Part shown: piece by piece, positions 22,683-60,883 of the stretch
Layout: each line of letters starts with the position of its first letter
How positions within the stretch are numbered: position 1 is the stretch's first letter
Made by a program: the position numbers and the translations under genes
Notes under the pieces: generated by a model
Seen by the model: only the letters and a program-made list of their open reading frames with translations
The model's database searches: none
What the model was told of the DNA's origin: nothing
Source: a virus
Taxonomy: Duplodnaviria > Caudoviricetes
Reading direction: 5' to 3' (one strand)
Virus record (IMG/VR): IMGVR_UViG_3300028048_002144
Length of the DNA stretch: 64,000 bases

Positions 22683-24032
22683 ATTGCTCCGACTTTTATA
22701 AGTCGGAGCTTCTTGCTTCAACCATTACTGCATTCCTAACAAGTTACCTTGTCGGCTCGTCTTACACAATGTCCACAAGCGTATAAGTTCGGGCTATTCC
22801 ATCCCTACTATAATATTTAGTTCTAATCTACTTCAGCCAGTAGTCGTAATCCTTCGTTTAGGATATTGATAGCTGCGTTTTGATCACGATCCATCGTAAG
22901 ACCACAATCGCATACCATTTTACGGATGGTTAAGTCTCTCATTTCTGGATGTTTTGTTCCACAACAATGACAAATTTGTGATGACGGGAACCACTTATCT
23001 ACTTTTACAAGATATTTGTTTCTTTCTGATAACTTATATTCAAGCATCGACAGAAACATACCATAACCGTTATCCAGAGTAGCTTTACCGTTCCCAAATC
23101 CTTTATTAGACATAGCTTGCATGTTTAAGGATTCCACACATACAACATCATACCGATTGGCTATCTCAGTAGATATCTTATGCAGATTATCCAGACGCTG
23201 ATTAGCAATATGTCTATGGATTTTGTTTACTTTACGGAGTTGTTTTATATAATTTTTGGACTTTACCTCGTGTTTTTTAGATCCTTGCATGCGGGATAGC
23301 CTACGCTGTGCTTTGGCAAGTTTATCATGACTCTCACGATAATATTTGTGATTAGTTCCTACGTTACCGTTGCTATCCACATATAAGCCATTAGAAGCGT
23401 AGTCTAATCCGATAGCATTGGTCTTATCTGCTACATAAAGATTTGTTATATTCGCAAACTCAAAAAGAATAGAAATATAATATTTGCCATCTGATTCTTG
23501 TGATACGGTAGCGGATTTAATAATCCAATCGCTATCAGGAATACGATGGATAACTGCTTTTACCTTACCAATCTTAGGAAGCTTGATATATTTATTCTCT
23601 ATGATAGCAACAGTGCCTTTTTGATTATTAGTAGTATAGGACTTTCGGCTATGTTTTGCAGACTTGAATTTAGGGAATCCGTTTTTCTTTTTGCGGGATT
23701 TACTAAATGCATTGCGAAATGCTTCCTGTAAATCCATTTGCTTATTAGCAAGAGCTAGACTATCCACTTCTTTGAGATAAGGATAATCTTTTTTGTATTT
23801 AGCAGGTGTAACAGTAGGGAACTTGCCAGTAGCCTTGTAACCTTCAATTTTATCGGAAAGCATAAGATTCCAGACCTTACGACAACAGCCAAAGGTTTTA
23901 GCAAACATAACAGATTGTTCAGTTGTCGGATATATTCTGTACTTAATTGCTCTATTCATTAACTACCTCATGCGATTCATTTTATCGCCTATACTGTGCT
24001 TATTGGTGAGGAAATCTCGTCCACGGTGACTC
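22679..24032 (-). mobile_element. TnpB-only IS200/IS605 element inserted after TTAT
   Basis: Right end: GCTCCGACTT..AAGTCGGAGC hairpin then TTCAC. Removing 22679-24032 gives a TAA stop in frame with the plus-strand ORF. Confidence 0.75.
22823..23959 (-). CDS. tnpB: RNA-guided endonuclease TnpB
   Basis: HTH_OrfB; RuvC GLDY, VES, DRDQNAA; zinc finger. Confidence 0.95.
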   Translation of the reverse strand: MNRAIKYRIYPTTEQSVMFAKTFGCCRKVWNLMLSDKIEGYKATGKFPTVTPAKYKKDYPYLKEVDSLALANKQMDLQEAFRNAFSKSRKKKNGFPKFKSAKHSRKSYTTNNQKGTVAIIENKYIKLPKIGKVKAVIHRIPDSDWIIKSATVSQESDGKYYISILFEFANITNLYVADKTNAIGLDYASNGLYVDSNGNVGTNHKYYRESHDKLAKAQRRLSRMQGSKKHEVKSKNYIKQLRKVNKIHRHIANQRLDNLHKISTEIANRYDVVCVESLNMQAMSNKGFGNGKATLDNGYGMFLSMLEYKLSERNKYLVKVDKWFPSSQICHCCGTKHPEMRDLTIRKMVCDCGLTMDRDQNAAINILNEGLRLLAEVD

Positions 24033-27321: not shown

Positions 27322-27424
27322 TTTTTAATTCCTCCTTTTTATCATTAAAAATCTACTTATAATATGAAAGATTAATAAGTCAATTTATCAAAAAAGCCCT
27401 GGGAATAATCCCAAGGCTTTTACA

Positions 27425-29512
27425 TTACTTGCTGTTTAAATAGAATGCTTTGAAGATATCAATCAATTTATCAGCTAGTTTGTTTGGTTCACATGCAATA
27501 AATTGCTTTCCATACATTTTACTATATGTATCCAAAATCTCTTTATTATAACTGTCATTCATATCCAAATACTCTGAGATATAAATAGGTACAACTATAA
27601 TACCATTTTCCCTAGCAATTCTAACAGCTTCCTGTACATCATATGCTGGATTAATTTCGGTAGAATTATAATCCGTAGGAAGACCATCTGAAATAATTAC
27701 AAATATCTTCTTTTCTTCTGGACGATTAAGGAGTTCTTTTGTGGCAATTCTGATTGAATATCCATCTTTATTTCCACATTCAGCATCTAATGCCTTTAAG
27801 AAATTGAATGAATTAGAATTACTCTGTACTTCATCAAACTCTTTTACACATCTATGAATAACGTTATTATCACTGCATGTAAATGATGTGATTTTAAGAG
27901 GCATTAATTCTTTAAATGCTTCTTCAATTAAAGTCGATGCTCTACATGCTAACTCTCTTTTACTTCCATACATAGAACCTGAATTATCCTGCAAGATATA
28001 TGCGACTCCGTCAAATTCTTTTTCGTCAATTTCACGTTCAAAGAATTCTGTTTCACCTAGAATCATCTTGTACAGATCATCTTCACAAACGTCTCCTCGT
28101 GTTAAATCTGTTTCGATTGACTTCTGGTTACGAAGAATCTGCATTAATTCCTGTTTAACTTTCTGAGCATTTGCCTGGATATCTGTAGGCGTTGGATAAT
28201 TCAACTTATATTCTCTAGGCAATTCTTTAAAAGTAACATCTGGATCATACAGTTTTCCTTCTGATTTTTCTAATGATGGTGGAGTTGGATTCATTTTAAC
28301 AGGCTTTTCCATAACGCTTTTTTGAGAATCAATTTTACTCTTTTCCTTTTCAGAAACTGCATCTAAGCTTTCCTGGGCTTCTTTTACATCCTCTTCTGAT
28401 GGTGTACTTTTAGCTGAATCTTTAAGCTTTTCTTTAACATCTTTGCCTTTAGCTTCATCTCCCTTATCTTTTTCTTCTTTTTTATCGCTTGATGAATCAA
28501 AGATATTAAATCCATTCATAGATATATCTTCGCCAGTTTCATCATCGCTCTCTTCATTCGGAGAAAAGTTTTTAGGAAGATTATCGTATCCTTTTGCATC
28601 TGTTGAAAACATTTTAGCAATAGCACCAAGCATATTTTCAACTTCTTCAGCATCTAGTTTTACAGCTTCTAAGAATAGATCGTAGAGCTTGTTTTCGATT
28701 TCTAAAGATTTCTTCATTACTGTCATTGTTGTTTTGGCAGTAACTGATGTACCGATATCCATAAGCATTGAATCTAAAAGAGTATTAACTTCACCATCTT
28801 CTTTTACTGTATCTGCATAGTTTTTCATATACAGGCCCGATGTTGATAATGAAAGAATCTGATTTAGAATAATCTGGAGTTTTTCAATAGCGGTTAAGTC
28901 TTCCTCTTTATGTGGAAGCTTAAATTCTGCGCTATTGTAACTCTTGTTTCGGCTTACTAACAACTGGTTTTTAAAGTTATTAGATATCTCCATCTGTTTT
29001 CTTTCAATACGTCCATCTTCCATAGCATTACAGATAAAATGGTTAAATTCTTTGATTAAAGGAAGATTGATATAAATCTTTTCCTTTTCTCGCAAATACT
29101 TCAAGAATTTATCGTAATCTTCGTCTTTCTTAAAGCATCTAGTTTTACCTTCATACTTCGTTGACATATAGACAAAAAACGATTTTAAACCGGTTTTAAG
29201 TCCCCACATCCATGATCTAGCTGATGTATGTAAGATATGCCCAATCTCATGTCCAATAAGATACTTAATAACCAATACAAATTCTTTTTCATCTTTGCAT
29301 TCAACTATTAGTGGATTGCTTAATCCAATGTTAATGCACGGTGTGTTTTCATCATTATCAGTATAAACATCCTCAGAAAAATCCATTGTTAAACAAATTT
29401 CTTTGTCGATGTTATTAAGTATCCCCCATACTTTGACTTCACTATCAAATATGTTGTAATACTTATACCATTGCTTCTCAATAGCTTCAATATCTACAAT
29501 TTTAACGTTCAT
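27425..29512 (-). CDS. VWA-domain protein with N-terminal HExxH domain (CobT/NorD-like MoxR partner)
   Basis: HEIGH, NAMEDGRIE; MIDAS DNSGSM and ISDGLP. Confidence 0.85.
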   Translation of the reverse strand: MNVKIVDIEAIEKQWYKYYNIFDSEVKVWGILNNIDKEICLTMDFSEDVYTDNDENTPCINIGLSNPLIVECKDEKEFVLVIKYLIGHEIGHILHTSARSWMWGLKTGLKSFFVYMSTKYEGKTRCFKKDEDYDKFLKYLREKEKIYINLPLIKEFNHFICNAMEDGRIERKQMEISNNFKNQLLVSRNKSYNSAEFKLPHKEEDLTAIEKLQIILNQILSLSTSGLYMKNYADTVKEDGEVNTLLDSMLMDIGTSVTAKTTMTVMKKSLEIENKLYDLFLEAVKLDAEEVENMLGAIAKMFSTDAKGYDNLPKNFSPNEESDDETGEDISMNGFNIFDSSSDKKEEKDKGDEAKGKDVKEKLKDSAKSTPSEEDVKEAQESLDAVSEKEKSKIDSQKSVMEKPVKMNPTPPSLEKSEGKLYDPDVTFKELPREYKLNYPTPTDIQANAQKVKQELMQILRNQKSIETDLTRGDVCEDDLYKMILGETEFFEREIDEKEFDGVAYILQDNSGSMYGSKRELACRASTLIEEAFKELMPLKITSFTCSDNNVIHRCVKEFDEVQSNSNSFNFLKALDAECGNKDGYSIRIATKELLNRPEEKKIFVIISDGLPTDYNSTEINPAYDVQEAVRIARENGIIVVPIYISEYLDMNDSYNKEILDTYSKMYGKQFIACEPNKLADKLIDIFKAFYLNSK

Positions 29513-29614
29513 ATTTTCTCCTTTCTTATCTTAAAATTTCATCTTAAATATGAATGATTTTTTGTATAAAAAAAGATAGATATAGCATAAACTATATCTA
29601 TCTTTCTGTTTCAA

Positions 29615-31156
29615 TTACATATCACCGATGATATTGTTAATCAAATTGAGAATAACATCATTTCCAGCATCTGATGTTGCATTAACTACACATGTAGTAA
29701 TAGCCTTTGATAGCTTTGTCATAGGCATTTCCAGACCTTTTGTATTTACCATTACAGCAGCTGTTTCATTAAGTGCTCTTACGAAACCTCGAATATTAAG
29801 AGTATCATCTGAAATATTTCCCTTCTGGTTTGCGTCCTGGAACTTAATGTACAATTCATTACACTTCTCAAAATACTTGCGTGGCAGTCTAGTTTTAGTG
29901 TATTCCTCACATGATTCCATTAAGATATTTAAAATATCCTTATGATATGGGAATTTTACAACATCAAATCTTGACATTGTAGCTGCATCAAGTCTATTTG
30001 TAGATGTGTAATTGCTACCTACATTCTGTGTTCCGATAATAAAGAAATCCTTATTAATTTCTACTGTTCCAGACTTTGCATAGAAAGTTTTACTACCATC
30101 TGCAAAAGGATGCAGGGCTGCTACAGTATTGCTATTACCGTGGTTGATCTCATCTGCGAAATATGGGATTCCTACAGGAGCAGCCTGGAGAAGATTTCCT
30201 CTTTCTGTTCCTAATCTAGGAGCCATTGAACAGTCTTTAGCGTAATTATATGCAATTAGCAGTTCTTTTTCCTCTGGAGTAAGATCTGACATTTTTTTCT
30301 CATTAAGCTTTAAGCTCAATTCGATTTCAATAGCCTTATTTGCTTTTTCAGAGTCAAATGCATCAAGTGCTGATGGTACAGTAGTCTTTGTTTCAAACAA
30401 GTCATTAGCAGTCATTTTGTTATTCAGGATATCTTTTCTATATGGAAGATTTAATATCCAACAAATAGTCTCTGCCATTACACCTTTTCCTGTAGACTTA
30501 TCACCTTCAAAGATAAATGAAGATCCAGCTAATGCTTTACCGAGAACCATAGTGACAATACTCTCTTCTTTATAGAAGTTGATATTATCGTATGTATCTA
30601 CGAACTTAGCCTTTGGCTTAGAACCCTTTTCTTCTCTATTATGAGAAATCCAGTATTCAATTACTGACATAATGAGTTCCTTTGGAGCTGGGATTCTTAG
30701 ATACTTCTTTGATTCCAGATATTCTACAATCTCCATAGCATTGTCTTCATCAATGCAACCCTGGGCTACAGCTTCTTTTACTTTAGATACAATATCACTA
30801 GAAGACTCTACTTTAGTAGTAGTTGTCTTTCCTTTAGAAGCAACCTTTTTATCCTTCACCTTTACAGTAAAAGATACCAGCTGACCACCGTTTTCTTCAT
30901 ATGTATCTTTTGTAATTGAAAAATCAAATGTTAAAGCCATTTTGAGTGTATTCAGATCAACTGTTTCACCAGAATCATTATCAACTACACTCTCTACAAA
31001 TCCAACAGTAGTATCCTTATAATCCATAAGAATTCTAGGCTCTACAAGCTTGAATTCAAAAGCTGCATTCTTTACGCTATTAGCTGTAAAGTCTTTTAAA
31101 AGAACATCTCTCTGTGGATACATAAATGGTGTTTTAATTGTAATGTTATAATTCAT
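29615..31156 (-). CDS. MoxR/CbbQ/NorQ-type AAA+ ATPase
   Basis: GDKSTGKG, FADEIN, IGTQN..Y..TNRLDAATMSRF. Confidence 0.85.
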   Translation of the reverse strand: MNYNITIKTPFMYPQRDVLLKDFTANSVKNAAFEFKLVEPRILMDYKDTTVGFVESVVDNDSGETVDLNTLKMALTFDFSITKDTYEENGGQLVSFTVKVKDKKVASKGKTTTTKVESSSDIVSKVKEAVAQGCIDEDNAMEIVEYLESKKYLRIPAPKELIMSVIEYWISHNREEKGSKPKAKFVDTYDNINFYKEESIVTMVLGKALAGSSFIFEGDKSTGKGVMAETICWILNLPYRKDILNNKMTANDLFETKTTVPSALDAFDSEKANKAIEIELSLKLNEKKMSDLTPEEKELLIAYNYAKDCSMAPRLGTERGNLLQAAPVGIPYFADEINHGNSNTVAALHPFADGSKTFYAKSGTVEINKDFFIIGTQNVGSNYTSTNRLDAATMSRFDVVKFPYHKDILNILMESCEEYTKTRLPRKYFEKCNELYIKFQDANQKGNISDDTLNIRGFVRALNETAAVMVNTKGLEMPMTKLSKAITTCVVNATSDAGNDVILNLINNIIGDM

Positions 31157-31248
31157 TATAATCTCCTTTCAAACTTAAAAATTCTAATACTAATATGAAT
31201 GATTTTTATAATAAAAAAATAAGAGTAGGAAATCCTACTCTTATTTTC

Positions 31249-32331
31249 TTAACTAAGTTCTTTTAAGTATTTTCTCATTCCAGCAGACTCAAACTGAAAT
31301 ACGTTCTTTGTTCTTCCTTTAGCATAGATATTTTCGTATACCTCTTCAGCGGAATGGCCAAATCTATCCGTGCCTTCAACTGGGAAATCTTTCTCAATAT
31401 CAATATCTTCACCATAACGTTCGCTAATCATTCTGATAGCATCCGTCATTATTGATAAGTTATTAAGTCCTAGAAAATCCATTTTTAAAAGGCCATTTTC
31501 TTCAGATTCAATCTTATCTGTTTCTACTACTCTTTTATTAGAAACTATTGTTGTAGACGTATAATTAGTAATATCGTTATCATCATAGATAATAATACCA
31601 GCTGCATGCTGTCCATACTGTCTTAGCATTCCCTCAATATTATATGCAATGTCCAGGATCTTTATTGCATTTTCGTTAGCAGAAAAATCAGATTTCAAAC
31701 TTTCAATCAAAGTAGTTTTATTATCATCAATCTCTGAATCAAAAGCCCAGAAATTATCGGTAATCTTTTTACAGATTTCATCAGCTAACGCATAATATGC
31801 ACCAGGAGATCCAACAAGTTCACCATAATATCGAGCAGCATCTTTTACGGAAGACTTTGGCTTTAAATATGATTTAGTGATAATTCCTGCTACTGCATCG
31901 TTTCCATATTTATTCTTAACATAAAGAATAACTTTGTTTCTTACATTTGGAGAAAAATCACAGTCCAAATCGGGCATAGATACTCTTTCTACGTTCAAAA
32001 ATCTTTCGAACAATAGATTATATTTGAGTGGATCAAGTCCAGTAATTCCAAGTAAATATACTACTAACGAACCAGCTCCAGATCCTCTTCCTACTCCAGT
32101 ACCCTGTCCTATTTTGAAATTATGCTCTTTTACATATTTCTTTGCTTCTTCGATAGTTAATGGTACTTCGTCTAATAGTTCATCTGGAACTACTCCGATA
32201 ACTCTACCATATTCAATGAAATCTTTTACGATTAAGAAATAATCGTTATATCCCATTTCATTGATAACGCTTAATTCGTATTCTACTCGTTCCTTGTGGG
32301 CTTTTGTCCAACCAGATAATCCTGGGTATTT
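31249..32331 (-). CDS. dnaE: DNA polymerase III alpha, palm/thumb fragment (continues the PHP ORF in the -1 frame)
   Basis: ERVEYELSVINEMGYNDYFLIV, GRGSGAGS, LLFERFLN.ER.SMPDLDCDF, HAAG, LLKMDFLGL, FQFES. Confidence 0.9.
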   Translation of the reverse strand, partial: KYPGLSGWTKAHKERVEYELSVINEMGYNDYFLIVKDFIEYGRVIGVVPDELLDEVPLTIEEAKKYVKEHNFKIGQGTGVGRGSGAGSLVVYLLGITGLDPLKYNLLFERFLNVERVSMPDLDCDFSPNVRNKVILYVKNKYGNDAVAGIITKSYLKPKSSVKDAARYYGELVGSPGAYYALADEICKKITDNFWAFDSEIDDNKTTLIESLKSDFSANENAIKILDIAYNIEGMLRQYGQHAAGIIIYDDNDITNYTSTTIVSNKRVVETDKIESEENGLLKMDFLGLNNLSIMTDAIRMISERYGEDIDIEKDFPVEGTDRFGHSAEEVYENIYAKGRTKNVFQFESAGMRKYLKELS

Positions 32332-33761
32332 TTCTTTATACCTTCTATAACCGCCTTTTTAAGAAGCATTTTGCTGTCTTTTGTTTTATCGAATACTGGA
32401 TAATGTCCCTCTCTCTCTGGAGTGAATTCGATTTTAATCTTATTTAGATTAAGCATAGCTTCTTTTACAGTTTCTGCATCAAAGATCTGCAATAATGCAT
32501 ATGCTAGTTCATTTGGTGACTTGATATAAAGTTCCTTATCCCACGGTTCGTCCGAAATGCGCTCAAATCGGAGATATCTGGCTACAGAGCGTTTAGTAAT
32601 AGATGAAACGGAATTATCCGGCAAATGGCTATCATTTGCGGCAATTAGAGGTATCTTATTATCTTTAGCAATCTTTACTAATGCTGTATAAAGAGTTTCC
32701 TCTTCTACCATACCATGATTCTGAATTTCAATGAAGAAATTATCTTTGCCTACTCTATCTCTTACTAATGCAATAATTCTAGTGGCAGCTTCAAAAGCTT
32801 CTTTTTCTGAAAACAAAATATGCTGTTTTTCAATACTGATTCTTATTGATTCATTTTTGCTGTATTTCTTTTCTAGTTCATCAAGTTCAGCTTTAAATTT
32901 TTTCTTATTCAGATTAGCCTCTTTGATAGCATCTTTGTTTTCTCCAAGTCTTTTATCCTTAGATACTTTTAAGTCCTCTTTTGAGGCTTTTAATAGCTTT
33001 ATTTCATTTTCGTCTTTTTTAGCTTTTGCATTTCTTAAATCGTTTGAAATGTCTGTATTCAATTTACAATACTCTTCTTTAAGAGTATTCTCTTTTTCTT
33101 TTAAATTTTCTATCAAAACATCCATCTGTTTAATAGAGTCATTTAAAGAACTTACCTTCTCACTAATTGAAGGATCATAATTATCCTTATTTGCATTATA
33201 GACTTTGTTAAGGCTACAATATCTTCTTAACTGAAGTGATGGCAAACCTTGAATACAAGCTGTTGTTATTACAACGGAATCGTTGAACTCTGTTGCTAAC
33301 AAATCTTCGAACTTAATTGCCGGTTTCCCTGCATGCATTGCTTCGCTTTTAGACACCAGTTTATCTATGATTCTTTTTCCCTGCTTATTTTTAGCAAGCA
33401 TTATCATATGTGCTACTGCTGTCTGCGCATCATACGGTGGACAAGTGACATATGCTTCTGTACCGTAAATAATATGCACGTTTTCTTTCTTCGCAGCTTT
33501 TAAGCACTGGAACATTGACGTAAATGAACCATGCTCTGTTACTGTGAAATATTCATAGCCTTTTTCTTTAGCTTTACGCACATATTTACTCGGTTCATCT
33601 ACAGCATCATTTACAGAACCACCTGGGTGATTATGCAAAGATACTTTTACCTCAGAATTAAAATCAATCCCTGTTTTTGTTTTTACAATCTCATTGATCT
33701 TTCCTTCTGGAAGATTAAAATATTTCGCTTTGTCTTCTGTATAATTTTTATACTCTAACAT
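32283..33761 (-). CDS. dnaE: DNA polymerase III alpha, PHP domain with coiled-coil insert
   Basis: LHNH, TEHG, GTEAY, HMIMLAKN, EIQNH, ANDSH. Confidence 0.9.
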   Translation of the reverse strand: MLEYKNYTEDKAKYFNLPEGKINEIVKTKTGIDFNSEVKVSLHNHPGGSVNDAVDEPSKYVRKAKEKGYEYFTVTEHGSFTSMFQCLKAAKKENVHIIYGTEAYVTCPPYDAQTAVAHMIMLAKNKQGKRIIDKLVSKSEAMHAGKPAIKFEDLLATEFNDSVVITTACIQGLPSLQLRRYCSLNKVYNANKDNYDPSISEKVSSLNDSIKQMDVLIENLKEKENTLKEEYCKLNTDISNDLRNAKAKKDENEIKLLKASKEDLKVSKDKRLGENKDAIKEANLNKKKFKAELDELEKKYSKNESIRISIEKQHILFSEKEAFEAATRIIALVRDRVGKDNFFIEIQNHGMVEEETLYTALVKIAKDNKIPLIAANDSHLPDNSVSSITKRSVARYLRFERISDEPWDKELYIKSPNELAYALLQIFDAETVKEAMLNLNKIKIEFTPEREGHYPVFDKTKDSKMLLKKAVIEGIKKNTQDYLVGQKPTRNE

Positions 33762-52225: not shown

Positions 52226-52309
52226 TGGATAGGGTAGGACTTGAACCTACAATGTCAATAAGACGACAGTTTTACAGACTGCTGCATTACCAATTCTGCT
52301 CATCTATCC
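52226..52309 (-). tRNA. tRNA-Tyr(GTA)
   Basis: Cloverleaf; GCAGT-CTGTAAA-ACTGT; long V-arm. Confidence 0.9.
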
Positions 52310-52568: not shown

Positions 52569-52657
52569 AGTAGGTGATCGGAATCGAACCGATGATCTAT
52601 AAATAAGACGTACAGTTTTGCAGACTGCCTTCTCGAACCAACAGAGAATTCACCTAC
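52569..52657 (-). tRNA. tRNA-Cys(GCA), atypical long variable arm
   Basis: GCAGT-CTGCAAA-ACTGT; T-arm ATCGG-TTCGATT-CCGAT; U73. Confidence 0.7.
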
Positions 52658-52837
52658 ATATATAATTATTTTTCTTTGGTAGTTTGCAATATTGGATATT
52701 TGTTCTAGGTTTAGGGCATTGTTCTAATGGTTTCCATTTGAAGCTATCCATTAAATATCCTAGAACACATTGCATTTCGTATTTGCTACAAGGACTAGAT
52801 TCAAGTGCTCTACATCCATCACATGATTTTTTCATAA

Positions 52838-53134
52838 TTATCCTTCTTTACTATCTATCCATATAAGTGTAGCTGGAGCAATTACCAGATAAAATATTGC
52901 AATTTTACTAAGAGTTTTCGGTATCAACAAAAAAATTTTCGGAATTAAAAAGAAACACAATAGATCAATAAGATAAAGTCCTGCTATCATGCGTGGAACA
53001 AATCTTTTTGCATGTTCTTCCATTTCATGTTCAGCCTCTCCAATCTTTGTAGTTTTCTCTTCTGGAGAAAGTTCTTCATTAGTTATTGTGCTTGTCACTT
53101 TTGTTGCAAACTTCATATATTCCTTGAGAAACAT
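52838..53134 (-). CDS. membrane protein
   Basis: C-terminal TM segments. Confidence 0.55.
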   Translation of the reverse strand: MFLKEYMKFATKVTSTITNEELSPEEKTTKIGEAEHEMEEHAKRFVPRMIAGLYLIDLLCFFLIPKIFLLIPKTLSKIAIFYLVIAPATLIWIDSKEG

Positions 53135-53155
53135 TTCTTTACTCCCTATTAAAAT

Positions 53156-53488
53156 CTACCAGCCTATTGTTAATAAATCCAAGCATGTTTCATTATCATG
53201 TGTAAATTCTTGATATCCTACTACAATCATTTCCGGATCATAAGAGTCATAGTCTAAAGGATTAATCTTTCCATTTTCGATTTTAAACACACCACAAAAA
53301 CCAAACACATTTGACCATCCAGGAATTTTACTTACATCATGTAACTGGATTACAGCATATTTATCCGAAAATAAATCTGTTTTATCAAACTCAGTTGGCT
53401 TTTCTAAAAATGAAAAATCTTTATAGTCATCAGTATTTAATACACGTTGTTTAAGTTTTTCAAAGGTTTCTTTTTCATTCATTATCAT
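53156..53488 (-). CDS. hypothetical protein
   Basis: Operon gene. Confidence 0.6.
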   Translation of the reverse strand: MIMNEKETFEKLKQRVLNTDDYKDFSFLEKPTEFDKTDLFSDKYAVIQLHDVSKIPGWSNVFGFCGVFKIENGKINPLDYDSYDPEMIVVGYQEFTHDNETCLDLLTIGW

Positions 53489-53784
53489 GCCTCAAAACAA
53501 TTTTTATTAGTTTTTGTTTCTGGGTTTTCTGCTAATATTGAATCAAGAATTACTACTCGTGTTCTTTTGGTTTGTTGTCTAAATTTTTCTAAATCACGAT
53601 CATCACTAACAAAATATGTATCTGTGTAATTACACTCTAACTCTCTTTTAACAACATCAGAAACAGATTCATATTGCTGACGTTTTGCGTATCGCAAAAA
53701 TGCTGCTTTAGCAGCTTCGAAAAAGGGATCTCCTTCTTCTTTTTTAGGCTTAAAAAGATTTTTTATACAAGATAATACTTTCAT
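53485..53784 (-). CDS. hypothetical protein
   Basis: AAGGAG RBS. Confidence 0.6.
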   Translation of the reverse strand: MKVLSCIKNLFKPKKEEGDPFFEAAKAAFLRYAKRQQYESVSDVVKRELECNYTDTYFVSDDRDLEKFRQQTKRTRVVILDSILAENPETKTNKNCFEA

Positions 53785-53823
53785 ATTTTCATTCTCCTTA
53801 TAAATTCAATTATGTTTCTAACA

Positions 53824-54120
53824 TTAATTGTCCTGTAATAATATAATAAGATTTTTCAGAGCTTCTTCTGGAGTATTGCCTTTACCGATAATATAATCGT
53901 TTACATCATGGTCAGGATCATTTCCTTCCCAAAAGTTTTGGCATTCAACATCTCCTGCATCAACAGGAAGTTCAAAAAATATATATGATGGAGATAGATT
54001 AAACGCAAGAAAGCAAGCTCCCGAATATGCTCCACCATATCTGTCTTCGATAATGCAAAGAGGACATGGTATTTTTAAATTTATAAGTTCAGATGATTTC
54101 TGGTTTAAATCTTTATTCAT
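53824..54120 (-). CDS. hypothetical protein
   Basis: Start moved to MNKDL after AAGGAG; the longer track ORF overlaps tRNA-His. Confidence 0.65.
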   Translation of the reverse strand: MNKDLNQKSSELINLKIPCPLCIIEDRYGGAYSGACFLAFNLSPSYIFFELPVDAGDVECQNFWEGNDPDHDVNDYIIGKGNTPEEALKNLIILLQDN

Positions 54121-54142
54121 ATTTTCGTTCTCCTTATAAAAA

Positions 54143-54230
54143 GGGTGAAGGAGGAGACTCGAACTCCCACGAGCATTACACTCGGCAGATCCACAATCTG
54201 CTGCGTCTTCCAATTTCGCCACCAACACCC
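54143..54230 (-). tRNA. tRNA-His(GTG), Leu-like body with long variable arm
   Basis: GCAGA-TTGTGGA-TCTGC; G-1:C73; V-arm CGAGTGTAATGCTCG. Confidence 0.8.
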
Positions 54231-54232
54231 TA

Positions 54233-54307
54233 TTGCAGAACTGGGAGTCGAACCCAGTATCTCGAGATTATGAGACTCGAATGGTATATCCGTTCCACTC
54301 TTCTGCC
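54233..54307 (-). tRNA. tRNA-Met(CAT), 1:72 mismatch
   Basis: CGAGT-CTCATAA-TCTCG; standard T-arm. Confidence 0.75.
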
Positions 54308-54345
54308 ATGTTATAAAATTATTACAACTAGATTTAGGAAGGTCT

Positions 54346-54416
54346 CTCCCCAGTACAGGACTCGAACCTTGATTTCTTCGTTTCCAAAGTGTTCTACCGA
54401 TTGAACTAACCGGGGA
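54346..54416 (-). ncRNA. tRNA-like RNA with a GAAA tetraloop instead of an anticodon loop
   Basis: Acceptor TCCCCGG/CTGGGGA, canonical D-arm, CTTTG-GAAA-CGAAG, GGTTCGAGTCC. Confidence 0.65.
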
Positions 54417-54441
54417 TTCGCCTTCCATGTCTAATTGTTTA

Positions 54442-54514
<73 letters not shown>

Positions 54515-54638
54515 CTATTAATAATTAATGTCTACGGTCCGAAAACGCCTCGTCTGCAGCCGATACCTTTTATACTGAAATAACAGTTTAAGCATGGCCA
54601 AAAACTGTGCAAACGTATACACAAGGAATAGACAGTAG

Positions 54639-54711
54639 TGATTCCTGCGAGAATCGAACTCTGCATCTTAGCCTTGAAAGGGCTATGTCATAACCATTAG
54701 ACCAAGGAACC
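54639..54711 (-). tRNA. tRNA-Glu(TTC)
   Basis: TAGCC-CTTTCAA-GGCTA. Confidence 0.9.
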
Positions 54712-54821
54712 ATGACTCGTTGTTTAGCTAATTTTTAAGTGGACAACGATAACCACTCGCACTAAATTGTAAAACATAAAGTTTCATTTAATAATTCAAG
54801 TTTAGCCTACTTGTTTATTTG

Positions 54822-55814
54822 TTATCTATCGTCTCCGATATCAAAATCGTCCATAGAATCCGAGATATCTTTTTCCTTTTTGATATTCGGTTCTGGCTTT
54901 TTGTAACATATATCTCCACGTTCTAAATGTATTTCTAAAGCGTGATCCAAAATACGTTCTTTTCTTTCTTGTATCATTGTCTTATAAAAATTCTTACGAG
55001 TATCTGATATGATAGGTGTCTCATCAATGATTTTATTGATTTTATCCATATCAATATTTGGAACGATTTTCGCAATTGCTCTTACACAATTAATATCATC
55101 ACTTGAATTAAGCATCTCGTGATAAGTGTATTTTTCTGCATGCTTAATGTCATCTGTTTTTAATAGTGCTGCTTTAGGAAAATCGTACATTCTTCTATCG
55201 ATTTCTTCCCTGCTACTTAGAATTTTTTCAAATGCCTTTTCAGCCAATCCAGGATATAAAGAACTACCACAATCATAAACAGGTGCTAAACGAATTGTTC
55301 GTTCTTGTTCATTAACAAGATATCCCCAGTTCCCCTTATGGCGATCAAAATTGCCAATCAAAGCATCTGCAACAAATGTATCCCAATACCTAGCTATCGA
55401 TTCATCTCTAATTACGGATAATAGAGATCGATCTATGGTTCCATATATTTGATTGTATGTTGGTATGCGACCAATCTCGTTTTTTCTATATACAGTACGC
55501 ATAAACCAATCGAACTCCTGAAGCTTTTCACCTGGTTGTACAAAGTCTTTACATGCAACAACCGGTTCATCCTCATACACACCTAATAAAGTATCGTGTG
55601 TTGGTAATCCCAAAGATCCTACTATATGGCTACCAATGTATTCTGAGAATACGCTGTTTGAGGTGCTTGTTGTCAAATCATTAATCTTTTGTTTTTCATC
55701 GGCAAATTTAAGCATATAATGTTCGCCATTATAAATGATTGATTTCTTAGAATCTGAACCACCATAATCACGCAAACCTTGTTGTGCATATGTAAAATCA
55801 ATGATTTGTTCCAT
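54822..55814 (-). CDS. HipA/CtkA-like Ser/Thr kinase
   Basis: YGGS..K, YMLKF, SEYIG, DALIGNFDRHKGNWG, APVYDCGSSL. Confidence 0.85.
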   Translation of the reverse strand: MEQIIDFTYAQQGLRDYGGSDSKKSIIYNGEHYMLKFADEKQKINDLTTSTSNSVFSEYIGSHIVGSLGLPTHDTLLGVYEDEPVVACKDFVQPGEKLQEFDWFMRTVYRKNEIGRIPTYNQIYGTIDRSLLSVIRDESIARYWDTFVADALIGNFDRHKGNWGYLVNEQERTIRLAPVYDCGSSLYPGLAEKAFEKILSSREEIDRRMYDFPKAALLKTDDIKHAEKYTYHEMLNSSDDINCVRAIAKIVPNIDMDKINKIIDETPIISDTRKNFYKTMIQERKERILDHALEIHLERGDICYKKPEPNIKKEKDISDSMDDFDIGDDR

Positions 55815-56019
55815 ATATACCACCTCTACAGTAATAATCTTTTAAAGCTTCTTGTTGTTCTCGTGTCAAATCGATATCATATGAATTAATATCCGAACGA
55901 AGATTGTCCATGTAACAATCTGGAAGCTCGCCACCACTGTTTAAATACTCTAACAATTCATCGATATCTCTTTGAATCAAATACGGAATATTAAAATCGA
56001 ACTTCTTTGCATAATACAT
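55798..56019 (-). CDS. small protein overlapping the kinase start (candidate antitoxin)
   Basis: AAGGAG RBS before MYYAK; overlaps the kinase gene. Confidence 0.55.
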   Translation of the reverse strand: MYYAKKFDFNIPYLIQRDIDELLEYLNSGGELPDCYMDNLRSDINSYDIDLTREQQEALKDYYCRGGIYGTNH

Positions 56020-56138
56020 ATATTGTGCTCCTTTTAAATATGTATATCTTTTTATTTGAAACAAAATAACGTTCCATATAATTAGTATAACATTATCATT
56101 TCTACATTATTTACAAAAATAGATTCGATTTAAAGGAA

Positions 56139-56195
56139 TAGCGATAACCGGATTCGAACCGATACCTTGCAAATGCACCATTACACCATATCGCC
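56139..56195 (-). ncRNA. 57-nt tRNA-like RNA lacking the anticodon stem
   Basis: GGCGATA/TATCGCT acceptor, D-arm, TTGCAAGGT linker, ATCGG-TTCGAAT-CCGGT. Confidence 0.65.
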
Positions 56196-56422
56196 ATCAG
56201 ACCGTTTTTAGTCGCCTTTAAAGTTTAATCTCAAAGGATCTCTTGAGTGCGTGATCAAACTCTGTGTCTTTTAATGCCCTATAGGCTCTGTTCTTTAATG
56301 CCCTGTAGGCATGATACTATGATAGGTTTATGGTCTCTTATCCCCGACCTCTCGGATATGTTTAAAGTCTCTAACCCGACTAATTTTGAATCGTCCACTA
56401 AAGCAGGACCTCTCTAATTTTA

Positions 56423-56767
56423 TCAACTATTTTTAACTAGGATATTCTTCATAAAAATATAGTCATTCAAAAAATCTTGTATTTTAGCCTTAACCTTTAT
56501 TGATCCTAGAGTATCTTTCGTTCTATTCATTGTTGAAAATACTAAATCTCTTCTTTTTACATCATCATCAATAAAATAACGGGTATCACAATGAAGAGAA
56601 TTACAAAGTAGTTCTAAATCAAAAGTATTAATTTCTTCGTAAGCAAGTTCATTAGCAATTAGTTTCTTAATTACATCTTCATCTACAAAAGACTCTTTAG
56701 ATAAAATAGAACAATCAATATTCAACATATTCATTCTTTTACGCAATTCATTACCAATGTACTTCAT
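56423..56767 (-). CDS. XRE-like HTH protein
   Basis: IGNELRKRM..LSKES.V..I..L...LCNSLHCDTRYF. Confidence 0.55.
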   Translation of the reverse strand: MKYIGNELRKRMNMLNIDCSILSKESFVDEDVIKKLIANELAYEEINTFDLELLCNSLHCDTRYFIDDDVKRRDLVFSTMNRTKDTLGSIKVKAKIQDFLNDYIFMKNILVKNS

Positions 56768-57012
56768 ACGTAAACTCCTATTTAACTATGCTTACAAAAG
56801 ATATCAAAAATATTATTTATCGTGTTTTAGATGATAGAATTTTCATCCAAATCAATCTATATGTATGAATTAAAGACTCTGTGTATTCTTGCATTTCTTT
56901 TAGAATTTTTGGATCTTCAATATGCTTAGGATACCCATATTTTGTTGCATTTAAAAACAAGTGTATCTTAACGTATTTCTCTCGTATTTTTAATTCTTCC
57001 TCAGTCGTATGG

Positions 57013-57198
57013 TTACCAATATGTATTCCATACTGACCAAACTATTATTTTTAACCAAAACGGAACTTTTTTCATTTCTTGAATCATTTCTGGGTGATCT
57101 ATAATATAAATAATTTTACATTTCTCAAGATAAATACGAATAAGAATAAGAATAAGAATTACTATAATTGCTCCAATTGTAATAATAGTTTCATTCAT
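57013..57198 (-). CDS. small membrane protein
   Basis: Start moved to MNETI; the longer track ORF overlaps tRNA-Trp. Confidence 0.5.
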   Translation of the reverse strand: MNETIITIGAIIVILILILIRIYLEKCKIIYIIDHPEMIQEMKKVPFWLKIIVWSVWNTYW

Positions 57199-57231
57199 TA
57201 TTGCAATATCTTCCCTTTCTAAAACACTGAG

Positions 57232-57315
57232 CAGGCGTGGAGAGATTCGAACTCTCAGTATCCTTTCGGAGTCATGGTTTTGGAGACCACTGCTGTTCCG
57301 TTGAGCCACACGCCT
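57232..57315 (-). tRNA. tRNA-Trp(CCA), long variable arm
   Basis: GTGGT-CTCCAAA-ACCAT; V-arm TCC-GAAA-GGA; G73. Confidence 0.85.
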
Positions 57316-57371
57316 ATAAATAAGTATCAATATTAAGCAATTGTCTAAAATACGAGGTCTCAATACATCAG

Positions 57372-57455
57372 GAGCGTTGCAGGGAATTGAACCCTAAACT
57401 AGTATTTTCCTTCGGCTCAGAACCGCTGTGCTATCCGTTACACCAAACAACGCTC
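57372..57455 (-). ncRNA. atypical tRNA-like RNA (nominal CTG/Gln anticodon)
   Basis: 8-bp acceptor GAGCGTTG/CAACGCTC; weak anticodon stem; paralogous to 60257-60336. Confidence 0.55.
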
Positions 57456-57552
57456 ATATAGGTAATTTAGGCATTTTGCCAGGGTTTTATGTTGCCAGAT
57501 GCCTCCATCTTAGCGCAATCTTAAAACCACAACCTATTTACCCACATTTTAA

Positions 57553-57636
57553 CGCAGTATCCAGGACTCGAACCTGGAAACCATTTCTGGATGCTTGATT
57601 AGTAGTCAAGTGCTGTACCAATTGAGCCAATACTGC
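57553..57636 (-). tRNA. tRNA-Ser(ACT)
   Basis: CTTGA-CTACTAA-TCAAG; long V-arm; G73. Confidence 0.8.
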
Positions 57637-57803
57637 ATAATTAATGCAGCTCCTCTTGTCTCGAACCTTTACAGATAGGAAAGTTAGCTATTCTTTCGTT
57701 CGTCTGTTTTCCCCAGATCAAATATGCTGGTCTGTCAGGGGACTCAAGGATACTGCTTTAACTAGGTCGTAATGCCTAAAATACGAGGTCACAATGCCCC
57801 AAG

Positions 57804-57875
57804 CGACTCTACTGGGAATCGAACCCAAATCTTCGGATAGACAGTCCGACATAATAGCCGTTATACCATAGAGCC
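57804..57875 (-). tRNA. tRNA-Asp(GTC)
   Basis: TCGGA-CTGTCTA-TCCGA. Confidence 0.9.
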
Positions 57876-58137
57876 ATAGTGCCTACCAATTCACATTATC
57901 ATACATGGGGGGAGGTTCAAATATGTATGAATATGCTATAAGCTCGGCTTTGCTTCCATTTCAAAAGGAGAATTCTAATAATGAAAATAAACGCAGTAAA
58001 CTATAAACAAAATGAAAGGGGAATACTAAAACAAACACAAAAAAAGTGAATGGTATTTAGTAAACATGCGCTTATTCTATTATTAGAGTGCATCTAATGG
58101 GATTCGAACCCATACTCTATTGCTAGAAAGGGATTTT

Positions 58138-58823
58138 CGTACCACTATATCTTTCAATACCCATCTGTGTATATGGTTTGTGGTCTGGAATCAATCTTTG
58201 CCCACTACTAAAAGTGTTGGGGCAGGACATGTATATTCTCTACGCACTCACTTAATAGTGATTGGCACGGTATTGCTACTAGGAAAAGTTTCACCGTTTA
58301 GTGTCCATTCAGCGTAAATATTCCTATTTACCTGCTCATGCTTACCAGAGTAATTCAACTTCTTTTAGTCTGTTTTCCATTCGATATAAAAGTTTATAAC
58401 TATGACTACCTACTTTTCCTGAACATGATTTACTACAAGTTAAATAACGTGTTCTACCACGATTTATATCAACATAAAATCTTGTCCATTTATCGCTTTT
58501 CATAACAAACTTAGCACCACAAATAATACAGGTTTCAATTGTATCTTTGTATTTTCTAGAATGTTGTTTTTGATGCTCACCATGAACTAAAATTTCTAAA
58601 TTAGATAAATCATTATTATCTGGGTTTTCGTCTTTATGATGAACATCTTCTTCTGGCTTTAATGGCCTGCCTAGCTTCTTCGCCATTAAAATTCGAGGAT
58701 ATGAAATTACATGTGGTTTGCCATTTTCATCTACACAGTAAGCTCTCCACCTGCCATCCCTGCATTTGTAAGCTTTTTTAATAAAAAGATCCATATGCTA
58801 TCCTCTCTAAGGCCTTACTATCT
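58138..58823 (-). mobile_element. group I intron with homing endonuclease
   Basis: Exon ends in U and intron ends in G; P AAACGGTGAAAC, Q AATACCGTGCCAA, R GTAGAGAATA, S AAGATTGATTCCA. Confidence 0.85.
58342..58794 (-). CDS. intron-encoded HNH homing endonuclease
   Basis: LGRPL..EDVHHKDENPDNNDLSNLE..H..QH; C-terminal CxxC..CSxxC. Confidence 0.9.
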   Translation of the reverse strand: MDLFIKKAYKCRDGRWRAYCVDENGKPHVISYPRILMAKKLGRPLKPEEDVHHKDENPDNNDLSNLEILVHGEHQKQHSRKYKDTIETCIICGAKFVMKSDKWTRFYVDINRGRTRYLTCSKSCSGKVGSHSYKLLYRMENRLKEVELLW

Positions 58824-59109
58824 AAGTCCCTCGTGTCTGCCAGTTCCACCATAGATGCATATTTGTCTACTTAAAGAACCATTAGAAATGTAGACTTTAT
58901 TCTTTTTAATATAAGGATTTATGTTAATCGTACTACCCTATATTTGGAACCTGGTCAAAAATAAATAATAGATCAAAATAATAATAATATTGGTTAGTTA
59001 ACCTTCGTCTCTAATTCTGTTTGTAAATCTTCTTAAACCCATATCATAAGTCTTCCTTTCTGTAGCCTATTTTTTATTAATAAAATGAGTTTAATGCTTC
59101 ATTTTTTAA

Positions 59110-59181
59110 CAGCCCATACTGGATTCGAACCAGTGCATCAGGGAGTCAAATTCCCCTGCCTTACCGCTTGGCTAATGAGCT
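59110..59181 (-). tRNA. tRNA-Gln(TTG)
   Basis: GGGGA-ATTTGAC-TCCCT. Confidence 0.9.
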
Positions 59182-59354
59182 AGATTGTGGGGTTTATCAA
59201 ACCCCACATGTAAAGATTGAGTTATCTCAAAAAAATAATGAGATAAAGGGTAGGTAGGATTTCTACCATGAAAGAAAGTATAAAATCAACATTGAGATAT
59301 CAAAAAGTATCAAAAATATATCTCGAACTATAGTGAAATGGATACTTTTTATAG

Positions 59355-59428
59355 CGGATTCGCCAGGACTCGAACCTGGGACATCATGATTAACAGTCAT
59401 GCGTTCTAACCGACTGAACTACGAATCC
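59355..59428 (-). tRNA. tRNA-Asn(GTT)
   Basis: CATGA-CTGTTAA-TCATG. Confidence 0.93.
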
Positions 59429-59612
59429 ATACAGGAAACATCACTTTGATAAATGACGTTTCCAGGACATCCTTCTACAACATGGTAGACGATTATTCGA
59501 GGATTTTGATACCGCAGTTCCACAACTGCGTACAACAAACAGAAAGGAAGGTGACGTTACGTGAAGTGCGACCCCTATCTGTCTATTGCATTAAATTGTA
59601 AGAGACAGAGTG

Positions 59613-60221
59613 TTACATAAACACTCTATAAGAATAACTGCCGAACTCGTTTTACTAACTTCGCTCTATTCTTAATAGCACCACTATATTCGATCACATG
59701 GAAGATACATGCGAACCTAAATTGTACGGGTTTAGGCTATGTACCCTGGCAAGCCATGAAAGGACTGATACCTTTAACTTTCACCACCATTCGCATTAAA
59801 ATAACAGATCCTTATAAATCTTCTGTTTTTAAGATTTTAATGCAAGCATTAGGCTACTCGTACAGACTTCTATTCTTATTGGTAAGAATTTCTTCTTACA
59901 TCTATGCTTTACCTACTTATTTGATTATTCCAACTGCAGTATCCCTTGTTATCACACGCAGGGCTTACAGGGTTCCCTACCTATTTCTAGTGGGCTTATT
60001 ATCGCAGGTGATAGTTTGTCTTATCTTTAGCTTCGTCTATCAAGATATGCCATAACCAACGTTTGAGAGGTTCCTCTCTTTTATCTCTATTATTACTAAT
60101 AAAGAAGTGGGCTCTCACATACACTATCGCATATGCTTATCCTTTGATTGCATTATGCCCTAGCAGAGTTGGCGACTCTTCTGCACTAGGATGGCAATTA
60201 TTCTTATAGAATGTTTATGTA
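59613..60221 (-). ncRNA. large ornate ncRNA, ROOL/GOLLD-like (about 610 nt)
   Basis: 29-bp closing helix with two G-U pairs on the minus strand; many internal hairpins; lies within the tRNA island. Confidence 0.65.
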
Positions 60222-60256
60222 TTTTTCAATGTGCATATTAAGCTATTAAAAGCTTA

Positions 60257-60336
60257 GGGGCACCTAGAGAGTCGAACTCTAACCGGTGTTTTGTCTTTCA
60301 GGACCGCTGATGTGCTACCGTTACACTAAAATGCCC
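60257..60336 (-). ncRNA. tRNA-like RNA with remodelled anticodon region
   Basis: Acceptor GGGCATT/GGTGCCC with D- and T-arms but no 7-nt anticodon loop. Confidence 0.6.
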
Positions 60337-60463
60337 ATACTCAATGTTCTATTTAATGTGGGAACAAAGAAGCCACAGGGTAAAAGAAATGAATGAATTA
60401 ACAATCCAAGAAATCTTTGATATGAAGTCTTGAAATGATGCTGCCGACAATAACGACAGCAAG

Positions 60464-60537
60464 TGGACCATGTTGGACTCGAACCAACGACAGCTCGCTT
60501 ATGAGGCGAGTGGTCTAACCAACTGACCTAATGGTCC
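60464..60537 (-). tRNA. tRNA-Ile2(CAT) (or Met)
   Basis: CTCGC-CTCATAA-GCGAG; GGACC acceptor resembling Firmicute Ile2. Confidence 0.85.
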
Positions 60538-60665
60538 ATGCGAGAGACCAAAAATAAACAAGAGAAAGGAGACTGGTCTCTCTAAAACTATGAAAAAAAT
60601 ATTGATTTATTAAAGCAGAAAGCCCTATGCTCATATAAAACTTACGATAAGACCTTCTGCCTTAA

Positions 60666-60747
60666 TGACCCTGATGGGACTCGAACCCACATGAGCTACG
60701 CTCGCATGATTAAAAGTCATGTGCCATACCAATTAGGCGACAGAGTC
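60666..60747 (-). tRNA. tRNA-Lys(TTT), long variable arm
   Basis: CATGA-CTTTTAA-TCATG; V-arm GAGC-GTA-GCTC. Confidence 0.85.
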
Positions 60748-60883
60748 ATAGTGCAGATATTCTCTGCACTAAAAACGTATTTTGAAAGGAGTATATGCAA
60801 CAGATGATTTTACTTTATCTATCTTGTTGACATATTTAATATGACAGATATACTCCCTTTTCTTCATTTTTGTTATGATTTTT

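Follow-up and report, generated by a model that had tools for sequence, protein, structure and literature searches.

Long variable arms on cysteine, histidine, tryptophan and lysine tRNAs in a viral tRNA array and their occurrence among phages

In bacteria, a fifth arm borne on the variable region is, by the textbook rule, found only on the transfer RNAs (tRNAs) for Ser, Leu, Tyr and Sec, where it is viewed as a mark of identity. In a stretch of 64,000 nucleotides (nt) from the virus record IMGVR_UViG_3300028048_002144 (Duplodnaviria; Caudoviricetes), hereafter referred to as the window, four other isotypes, tRNA-Cys(GCA), tRNA-His(GUG), tRNA-Trp(CCA) and tRNA-Lys(UUU), carry such long variable arms within one phage, and hundreds of phage genomes likewise encode long-arm tRNAs which keep the identity elements of their own isotypes. 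The four genes are probably working elongator tRNAs that accept their own amino acids on the five-arm plan of the Ser, Leu and Tyr tRNAs.

The long variable arms reported on these four genes in a preliminary description of the window were confirmed by the ARAGORN calls (Table 1). The hairpins expected there are predicted by RNAfold for Lys, His and Cys and drawn for Trp, as a short GAAA-capped stem, in the ARAGORN cloverleaf; all four tRNAs thus have a variable region of at least 10 nt able to form a hairpin between the anticodon and T arms, which is the class II criterion. The extra bases were mapped to the variable region in the Rfam alignments of Cys, His and the neighbouring Tyr and in the ARAGORN cloverleaves for Lys and Trp. 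An interpretation of these bases as introns was rejected, since they lie in the variable region and not in the anticodon loop. An intact 7-nt anticodon loop, U33, a purine at position 37, a normal T loop, G18-G19 and the acceptor stem are retained in all four. His, Trp and Lys have an acceptor stem of 7 base pairs (bp), a 5-bp T stem and a 3-bp D stem with a D loop of 9-11 nt, while the acceptor/T branch of Cys can be read as 8/4 or 7/5. RNAfold gives a clean five-arm cloverleaf for Lys and, for Cys, five arms with an acceptor of 8 bp and a T stem of 4 bp. Against the Rfam tRNA model RF00005 (gathering score 29), Lys, Trp and His score 59.2, 53.0 and 38.2 bits, respectively; the best model for Cys is tRNA-Sec (RF01852), with 41.7 bits, below the gathering score of 47. 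The acceptor stem of His has U.U mismatches at pairs 4:69 and 5:68. In the IMG/VR loci, U.U mismatches at acceptor pairs 4-6 were observed in 17 of 47 long-arm and 20 of 100 short-arm phage tRNA-His genes and in 1-4% of Lys and Cys genes.

As judged from their sequence variation, the arms are real helices kept by selection. Isolated variable regions of the matches listed fold with mean energies of -2.8 (Lys), -3.0 (Trp), -2.2 (Cys) and -1.7 (His) kcal/mol, as compared to -0.4 to -0.6 for shuffles. Covariation was examined in sets made up of all family members of a given arm length among the matches listed, with no selection for pairing, and with 500 shuffles. Compensatory changes were observed at all four pairs of the 17-nt Lys arms (n=21; 77% of cells paired), at all three pairs of the 14-nt Trp arms (n=20; 89.5%) and at all three pairs of the 14-nt Cys arms (n=20; 67%). 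The observed covariation score was reached by none of the 500 shuffles for Lys, Trp or Cys, and the signal was lost when the partner columns were slid. The shuffles and the covariation led to the rejection of chance hairpins as an account of the arms. The Lys gene itself is shared without a single difference in 82 bases by a rumen Logan contig (L518). The flanks of this contig have diverged from those of the window, with 8 mismatches in 151 aligned bases, 13 in 70 and a 43-nt indel, and at that rate (9.5%) an unchanged stretch of 82 bases would arise with a probability of about 3 in 10,000. An identical copy amid diverged flanks suggests that the Lys gene of the window is constrained. A second related contig (L519) carries at the Lys position a different Lys gene, with a run of N inside, which shows cassette turnover at this locus.

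To examine the distribution of such tRNAs, IMG/VR was scanned with patterns that join an anticodon loop typical of the isotype to a T loop further on, the two being spaced so that only a long variable region fits between them, and a match was taken as confirmed where ARAGORN called a tRNA of at least 82 nt at the same site. Confirmed long-arm tRNAs in IMG/VR number at least 118 for Lys(UUU), at least 115 for Trp(CCA), at least 96 for Cys(GCA) and 46 for His(GUG), the His pattern having matched 96 stretches; many of the long-arm matches lie on contigs of 100-600 kb. Two such genes are annotated in jumbo phages that have been cultured, namely an 87-nt tRNA-Lys in Caulobacter phage CcrBL9 (MH588546.1, 81826-81912) and an 87-nt tRNA-Lys beside a 77-nt tRNA-Lys in Xanthomonas phage XacN1 (AP018399.1, 30565-30651). 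Among 185,579 prokaryote species, each represented by one genome, the Lys pattern matched 69 stretches, with 46 confirmed, and 30 of 45 cellular loci with a long-arm Lys have at least five tRNAs within 8 kb; one such cellular array belongs to the rumen isolate Butyrivibrio sp. XPD2002. Thus, the long-arm design is common in phages and rare in cellular genomes, and is a phage-associated trait which is not special to the window. The presence of the same arms in host chromosomes, which would have spoken against a viral peculiarity, was not borne out by these 46 cases. When counted in loci fetched for another isotype, roughly 10-30% of the Lys, Cys, His, Trp, Asn, Thr and Ile tRNAs are long-armed, while long arms are rare on Ala, Val, Pro, Phe, Asp and Arg tRNAs (loci fetched for one isotype). 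In the loci of the Lys scan (L007-L126), 10 of the 11 tRNAs with the Ile anticodon UAU are 91-95 nt long. The preliminary description had held long arms to be restricted to Leu, Ser, Tyr and Sec; this stands as the textbook rule and admits exceptions, both in a published survey (PMC5389517) and in the present scans. No literature on phage families of long-arm Lys, Trp, His and Cys tRNAs with cognate identity was found, in a search that covered subscription journals thinly. What distinguishes the window is the occurrence of the four isotypes in one array together with donor relationships that appear unusually clear.

The amino acid identity of the four tRNAs can be read from a few positions. 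CysRS, TrpRS and LysRS recognise mainly the anticodon and base 73, and HisRS reads G-1:C73; the cognate synthetases should, given this mode of reading, tolerate an extra arm. SerRS and LeuRS ignore the anticodon, and U73 and G-1:C73 are, to our knowledge, used by no synthetase of a long-arm tRNA. The pairs A1-U72, G2-C71 and G3-C70, present in the Trp gene of the window, are those of E. coli tRNA-Trp. The identity bases given in the preliminary description (U73 in Cys, C73 with G-1 in His, G73 in Trp and A73 in Lys) were found on reading the sequence, and all four tRNAs match the bacterial identity sets, which combine the anticodon with A73 for Lys, G73 and A1-U72 for Trp, G-1:C73 for His and U73 for Cys (PMC9976931). 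The same holds across the families: among the matches listed, A stands at position 73 of 86 of the 115 Lys tRNAs, G at that of 86 of the 89 Trp tRNAs and U at that of 82 of the 87 Cys tRNAs, and C at that of 39 of 45 His tRNAs, while G at position -1 is present in 42 of 45 His, as against 4 of 115 Lys, 1 of 89 Trp and 7 of 87 Cys tRNAs (the non-His counts again among the matches listed). U73 occurs in 27 of the 115 long-arm Lys(UUU) tRNAs listed for L007-L126, and many of those with U73 have arms of 11-12 nt with an unclear stem. The codon usage of the phage was examined in a HipA-like gene of the array, in which TGG, AAA/AAG, CAT and TGT stand at eight of eight columns conserved as W, K, H and C among 114 homologues; the phage therefore decodes these codons by the standard code. 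Most likely, judging by the identity rules, each of the four receives its amino acid from the cognate synthetase.

The proposal of a remodelled tRNA set, put forward in the preliminary description, gains support from the kinship of Trp, His and Cys with class II genes for Ser, Leu and Tyr. In L001, a contig of different metagenomic origin, the gene for a HipA-like protein with 95% identity to that of the window likewise lies within a tRNA array, of 31 genes. The window Trp is 84% identical over the full length to the Ser(AGA) of this array, with near-identical arms, and 83% identical to its short-arm Trp2, from which it differs essentially by one 12-nt indel at the arm, with 77% identity between Trp2 and Ser(AGA). 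In this lineage, a tRNA-Ser gene then seems to have turned into a tRNA-Trp, of which the window form kept the arm. For His, which had been described as having a Leu-like D arm, the closest of 3,875 phage tRNAs are those for Leu(UAG/GAG), with 72-73% identity, and a single change leads from GAG to GUG. The anticodon stem of Cys is, as had been noted earlier, identical to that of the adjacent Tyr (GCAGT/ACTGT in both); the two genes are 75% identical and share the start of the arm as well, and GUA and GCA are also one change apart. The window Lys is 75% identical over aligned bases to the short-arm Lys of L001. When the arm and the anticodon loop are left out, the family cores among the matches listed are similar to the short-arm tRNAs of the same isotype and also to Ser, Leu and Tyr tRNAs, and much less so to other class I tRNAs; the long-arm families would therefore be mosaics or converged forms, to which no single general origin can be assigned. 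In this phage lineage, the bodies were probably remodelled from long-arm genes within a fast-changing array (Ser to Trp, Leu-type to His and Tyr-like to Cys) by a change of the anticodon and the gain of the discriminator elements of the new synthetase.

Resistance to tRNA-targeting defences of the host, the function proposed in the preliminary description, is plausible. The arm may have been kept because it makes a phage tRNA look unlike the four-arm version of the host to proteins which inspect the shape of tRNAs, the likeliest being tRNA-cutting or tRNA-modifying defence enzymes or the host-shutoff nucleases of the phage itself. In a more specific form, which we put forward tentatively, the arm would be an anti-defence body plan that keeps the Lys, Thr, Asn, His, Cys and Trp tRNAs of phages sterically out of reach of tRNases which read shape or cut stems, such as AriB-like enzymes, or of the host-tRNA-destroying enzymes of the phage itself, while synthetases, EF-Tu and the ribosome accept them. 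Since it projects next to the variable pocket and to positions 40-43 on the 3' side of the anticodon stem, the arm could shield those sites. Immunity by tRNA cutting is common and phages answer it with tRNAs of their own (PMC10264068, PMC11464382, PMC11555353). The targets of AriB are Lys(UUU), Thr(UGU) and Asn(GUU) (PMC12409363), all three of which are among the isotypes often long-armed in phage arrays, and its cut between positions 40 and 41 adjoins the point where the arm emerges. A comparison of the AriB-site motif between long-arm and short-arm Lys tRNAs included only seven unbiased long cases. The arm can also be a liability, because Septu cuts the variable loop of tRNA-Tyr (PMC13096335).

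Several observations weigh against the interpretation of the four genes as own-charged elongator tRNAs with a useful arm. In L001, the closest related array available, Cys, His, Trp and Lys are all called by ARAGORN as short-arm tRNAs, so the arm is dispensable in a near relative. The AriB site of E. coli tRNA-Lys reads U36-A-A-U-C-A41 (PMC12409363), and the window Lys, with U36 A37 A38 U39 C40 A41, has the same sensitive UAAUC|A. The RNAfold minimum-energy folds of His and Trp are not cloverleaves, and the arm stem of Trp is absent from its fold. Cys is an outlier in its A8, its D stem of 5 bp and the weakness of its arm, and it reaches at most 67% identity to the listed members of the phage Cys family. 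Trp combines G73 with Ser-type D and variable arms, so that some serylation is conceivable, and is the weakest case. Lastly, contigs from rumen RNA libraries match the ROOL RNA and some other stretches of the array, including parts of the intron region, and none of the four tRNAs.

Rather unlikely is the alternative that the arm is a neutral leftover, either of the remodelling of Ser, Leu or Tyr genes or of recombination within the array, which is tolerated because it makes no difference to the cognate synthetases, EF-Tu and the ribosome, and which brings no benefit. It would agree with the near relatives that differ only in the presence of the arm (Trp of the window and Trp2 of L001, and the Lys genes of the two arrays), with the position of Cys, Trp, His, Asn, Thr, Ile(UAU) and Met at one anticodon change from a long-arm anticodon, and with the resemblance of the long-arm cores to their own short-arm isotype as well as to Ser, Leu and Tyr tRNAs. 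However, the families are large and old enough to have accumulated many compensatory changes in the arm, Lys(UUU) lies two anticodon steps from any long-arm anticodon and yet has its at least 118 confirmed cases, and the rarity in cells of a design common in phages suggests an advantage specific to phages. A benefit from looking unlike the tRNAs of the host is weakly preferred over pure neutrality.

Mis-charging with altered decoding, the other possibility raised in the preliminary description, is improbable. It would require that Ser, Leu or Tyr identity was kept and the wrong residue inserted at UGG, AAA, CAY and UGY, for which there are precedents in the allo-tRNAs studied in E. coli (PMC5389517) and in the nev-tRNAs (PMC3333845); the G73 of Trp next to its Ser-like D and variable arms, and the A73 of Lys, which is common to Leu and Tyr, are compatible with it. 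It is disfavoured because the discriminators, and G-1 in His, follow the isotype of the anticodon across all four families, including the U73 of Cys and the G-1:C73 of His, while charging by SerRS would lead one to expect G73 throughout; Trp moreover carries the three acceptor pairs given above. Since the conserved W, K, H and C positions of the phage use these very codons in the standard way, as seen in its HipA-like gene, mis-insertion would harm its own proteins.

Quite improbable is a role outside translation, in which the four RNAs act as decoys or regulators, for example as sponges for tRNA-binding toxins, nucleases or T-box-like sensors. The array does include evident non-decoding mimics of tRNAs (54347-54415 and 56139-56195) and two odd Gln-like RNAs; the four long-arm tRNAs differ in having the intact anticodon loops with U33 and purine 37, normal T loops, G18-G19 and acceptor stems, and the identity elements kept throughout their families point to charging. 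Decaying pseudogenes or prediction artefacts, to which the low Rfam score of His, the score of Cys under the tRNA-Sec gathering score and the two U.U mismatches in the His acceptor stem might point, are very improbable in view of the recurrence of such mismatches in phage tRNA-His genes (17/47 and 20/100, as given above), the perfect conservation of Lys despite the divergence of its flanks and the hundreds of homologous designs with covarying arms.

Table 1. Features of the window discussed in the text, with positions in the 64,000-nt stretch
Feature	Position	Strand	Basis and remarks
tRNA-Cys(GCA)	52569-52657 (89 nt)	minus	ARAGORN; U73, A8, 5-bp D stem with 9-nt loop
Cys variable region, 18 nt	52594-52611	minus	weak 4-bp AT-rich stem (RNAfold); 5' half matches arm of adjacent tRNA-Tyr
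tRNA-His(GUG)	54143-54228 (86 nt)	minus	ARAGORN call
tRNA-His(GUG) including genome-encoded G-1 (54229)	54144-54229	minus	C73, Leu-type 3-bp D stem, 11-nt D loop
His variable arm, 16 nt	54169-54184	minus	5-bp stem, 5-nt loop; hairpin predicted by RNAfold
tRNA-Trp(CCA)	57231-57315 (85 nt, ARAGORN); gene 57232-57315	minus	G73, A1-U72, G2-C71, G3-C70, Ser-type D arm
Trp variable arm, 17 nt	57257-57273	minus	3-bp stem, GAAA loop (ARAGORN cloverleaf)
tRNA-Lys(UUU)	60665-60748 (84 nt, ARAGORN); gene 60666-60747	minus	A73, 3-bp D stem
Lys variable arm, 14 nt	60691-60704	minus	4-bp stem, 3-nt loop (RNAfold, ARAGORN)
tRNA-Tyr(GUA), ordinary class II	52226-52309	minus	likely parent or sibling of the Cys gene
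tRNA-Ser, anticodon ACU (A34), class II	57553-57636	minus	D arm of the same type as that of tRNA-Trp
tRNA-Leu(UAA), class II	58088-58858	minus	ARAGORN intron option; 686-nt intron in anticodon loop after position 35
HipA_C-domain kinase gene (PF07804)	54822-55823	minus	within the tRNA array
tRNA-like RNA, non-decoding	54347-54415	minus	passes Rfam tRNA threshold; 5-bp stem and GAAA in place of anticodon loop
tRNA-like RNA, non-decoding, 57 nt	56139-56195	minus	passes Rfam tRNA threshold
Odd 83-nt tRNA-like RNAs	57371-57453 and ~60260-60340	minus	poorly paired anticodon stem
ROOL RNA	59624-60214	minus	Rfam, 205 bits; inside the tRNA array
DNA polymerase III alpha-type enzyme	25585-33761	minus	at least three separate open reading frames, AAA and VWA genes in between
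Two TnpB/IS605 OrfB-type genes	10231-11418 and 22823-23959	minus	Pfam/PHROGs scans

The window has a G+C content of 31%, carries nearly all of its genes on the minus strand and is entirely contained in one DNA run from the bovine gut, the small shares of it seen in other runs being left aside as evidence of habitat; a contig of 205,278 bp is the recorded source of its proteins. Scans against Pfam and PHROGs, performed on open reading frames (ORFs) of at least 150 amino acids, identified replication genes that include the split DNA polymerase III alpha-type enzyme, a RecJ-like exonuclease and a ClpB-like ATPase, and the nearest named homologues of one window gene come from Blautia, Bilifractor and Lachnospiraceae assemblies. 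The window is read as part of a jumbo phage or phage-like element of a rumen Firmicute. A megablast search with the array DNA against 50,697 phage records gave no match, and there is thus no close phage record at the DNA level among them. The exact 21-mer of the His anticodon arm likewise had no match in IMG/VR. With the HipA-like kinase and the adjacent exonuclease as queries, no related loci were found in viral and genome contigs; the exonuclease has a single near relative, on a contig of 1.5 kb. Of the contigs fetched through HipA homologues, L002 and L003 contain no tRNA genes, and L004-L006 have no gene-free gaps as judged from their gene tables, ARAGORN not having been run on them. L520, fetched through a 256-amino-acid ORF downstream of the array, has protein genes and no gap beside the matched gene, again by its gene table and without an ARAGORN run. 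The 90% protein clusters of the ORFs near the array are singletons, except for one that led to L518 and L519, while the DNA run X8 contains a relative, about 88-90% identical, which spans Cys, Trp and Lys.

The tRNA array extends over 52.2-60.75 kb, all on the minus strand, with 13 tRNAs predicted by ARAGORN, to which Rfam adds three tRNA-like matches and a 590-nt ROOL RNA, and ARAGORN with the intron option a split tRNA-Leu(UAA). The intron of the latter contains an ORF of 150 amino acids (58342-58794), the translation of which suggests a putative homing endonuclease of the HNH type. The splice context (exon 1 ending in U and the intron in G) agrees with a group I intron inserted at the classical site in tRNA-Leu; no group I intron of Rfam matched there at E <= 1. 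The kinase gene within the array has 1,557 homologues at E <= 0.001, the few named ones being from Lachnospiraceae assemblies. As HipA-family kinases phosphorylate aminoacyl-tRNA synthetases, a possible connection of this kinase to the tRNA set deserves a look. The odd 83-nt tRNA-like RNAs have an unpaired, A-rich variable region of 14-15 nt and a relative in L519 (1418-1500); ARAGORN reads the window copy as Gln(CUG) and the L519 copy as Lys(CUU). A wobble A34, which in bacteria is normally confined to tRNA-Arg(ACG), was observed in serine tRNAs of both arrays, with the anticodon ACU in the window and AGA in L001 (5848-5933). The ROOL RNA is matched exactly (59641-60189) by contigs of 543-549 nt in two rumen metatranscriptome runs, at a depth of about 30, where carry-over of DNA is possible.

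If the tRNAs are correctly charged, a long arm would in nature be no obstacle to CysRS, HisRS, TrpRS and LysRS, to EF-Tu or to the ribosome, and tRNA genes would be able to switch amino acid identity across the divide between class I and class II. If the plan indeed serves against defence, a partly orthogonal set of phage tRNAs would have evolved many times. Trp and Lys of the window form, together with their L001 counterparts, natural pairs with and without the arm for studying protection from tRNA-directed immunity, and the long-arm design is of practical interest for the building of orthogonal tRNAs.

Phage tRNAs that resist defence nucleases resemble the present ones in being phage copies of defence-targeted tRNAs, Lys(UUU), Thr(UGU) and Asn(GUU) being often long-armed. 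The tRNA-Lys, -Thr and -Asn of phage T5 resist the AriB nuclease of PARIS by point substitutions such as U39A and A41C (PMC11464382, PMC12409363), and other resistant phage tRNAs include anticodon-loop variants (PMC10264068). The T5 escape tRNAs are thus changed at or near the cleavage site and have no extra arm, whereas the window Lys lacks substitutions of the T5 type, since U39, C40 and A41 are retained.

In structure, the nearest published kinds are the allo-tRNAs, the selC* tRNA-Cys and the nev-tRNAs of nematodes. Allo-tRNAs are marked by an acceptor/T branch of 8/4 or 9/3, by a long D stem that resembles that of tRNA-Sec and ends in a tetraloop, and by Ser identity, and insert Ser or Ala in E. 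coli; those with a His or a Lys anticodon number one each in that study (PMC5389517). They share with the present tRNAs a bacterial or phage long arm on anticodons other than those of Ser, Leu and Tyr, the location of some of them in phage tRNA clusters (PMC5389517) and the frequent anticodon UAU, which is common also among the long-arm tRNAs of the present loci. Unlike them, His, Trp and Lys of the window have a 7/5 branch, only Cys being drawable as 8/4, and their D stems are of 3 bp with 9-11-nt loops, or in Cys of 5 bp with a 9-nt loop. The window discriminators (U73, C73 with G-1, G73 and A73) match their own isotypes, and by these bases the four would not qualify as carriers of Ser identity.

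The window Cys resembles the selC* tRNA-Cys (PMC5389517, PMC7609411) in U73, the anticodon GCA (selC* tRNAs bear GCA or UCA), the long arm, the 8/4-compatible branch and tRNA-Sec as its best model. It differs in having no A51a bulge and an anticodon stem of 5 bp, with a mismatch at the sixth pair of the model, in scoring 41.7 bits against a gathering score of 47, and in its place in a phage array beside a tRNA-Tyr that it resembles. The general Pfam and PHROGs scans, which covered ORFs of 150 or more amino acids in the 64-kb window of the 205-kb contig, brought no gene of the selB* or cysS* type to notice. The nev-tRNAs of nematodes are class II tRNAs that are charged with Leu in vitro and are proposed to insert the wrong residue (PMC3333845); they share the class II scaffold and an anticodon which is neither Leu nor Ser (PMC3333845), whereas they are eukaryotic, with Leu identity and an alternative code, and the phage families match the identity of their anticodons. 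With the canonical bacterial Ser, Leu and Tyr tRNAs, the four tRNAs have in common the five-arm build, the 3-bp D stem with a long loop, the hairpin variable arm and kinship in sequence; what sets them apart from these is that their anticodons and discriminators are those of Cys, His, Trp and Lys.

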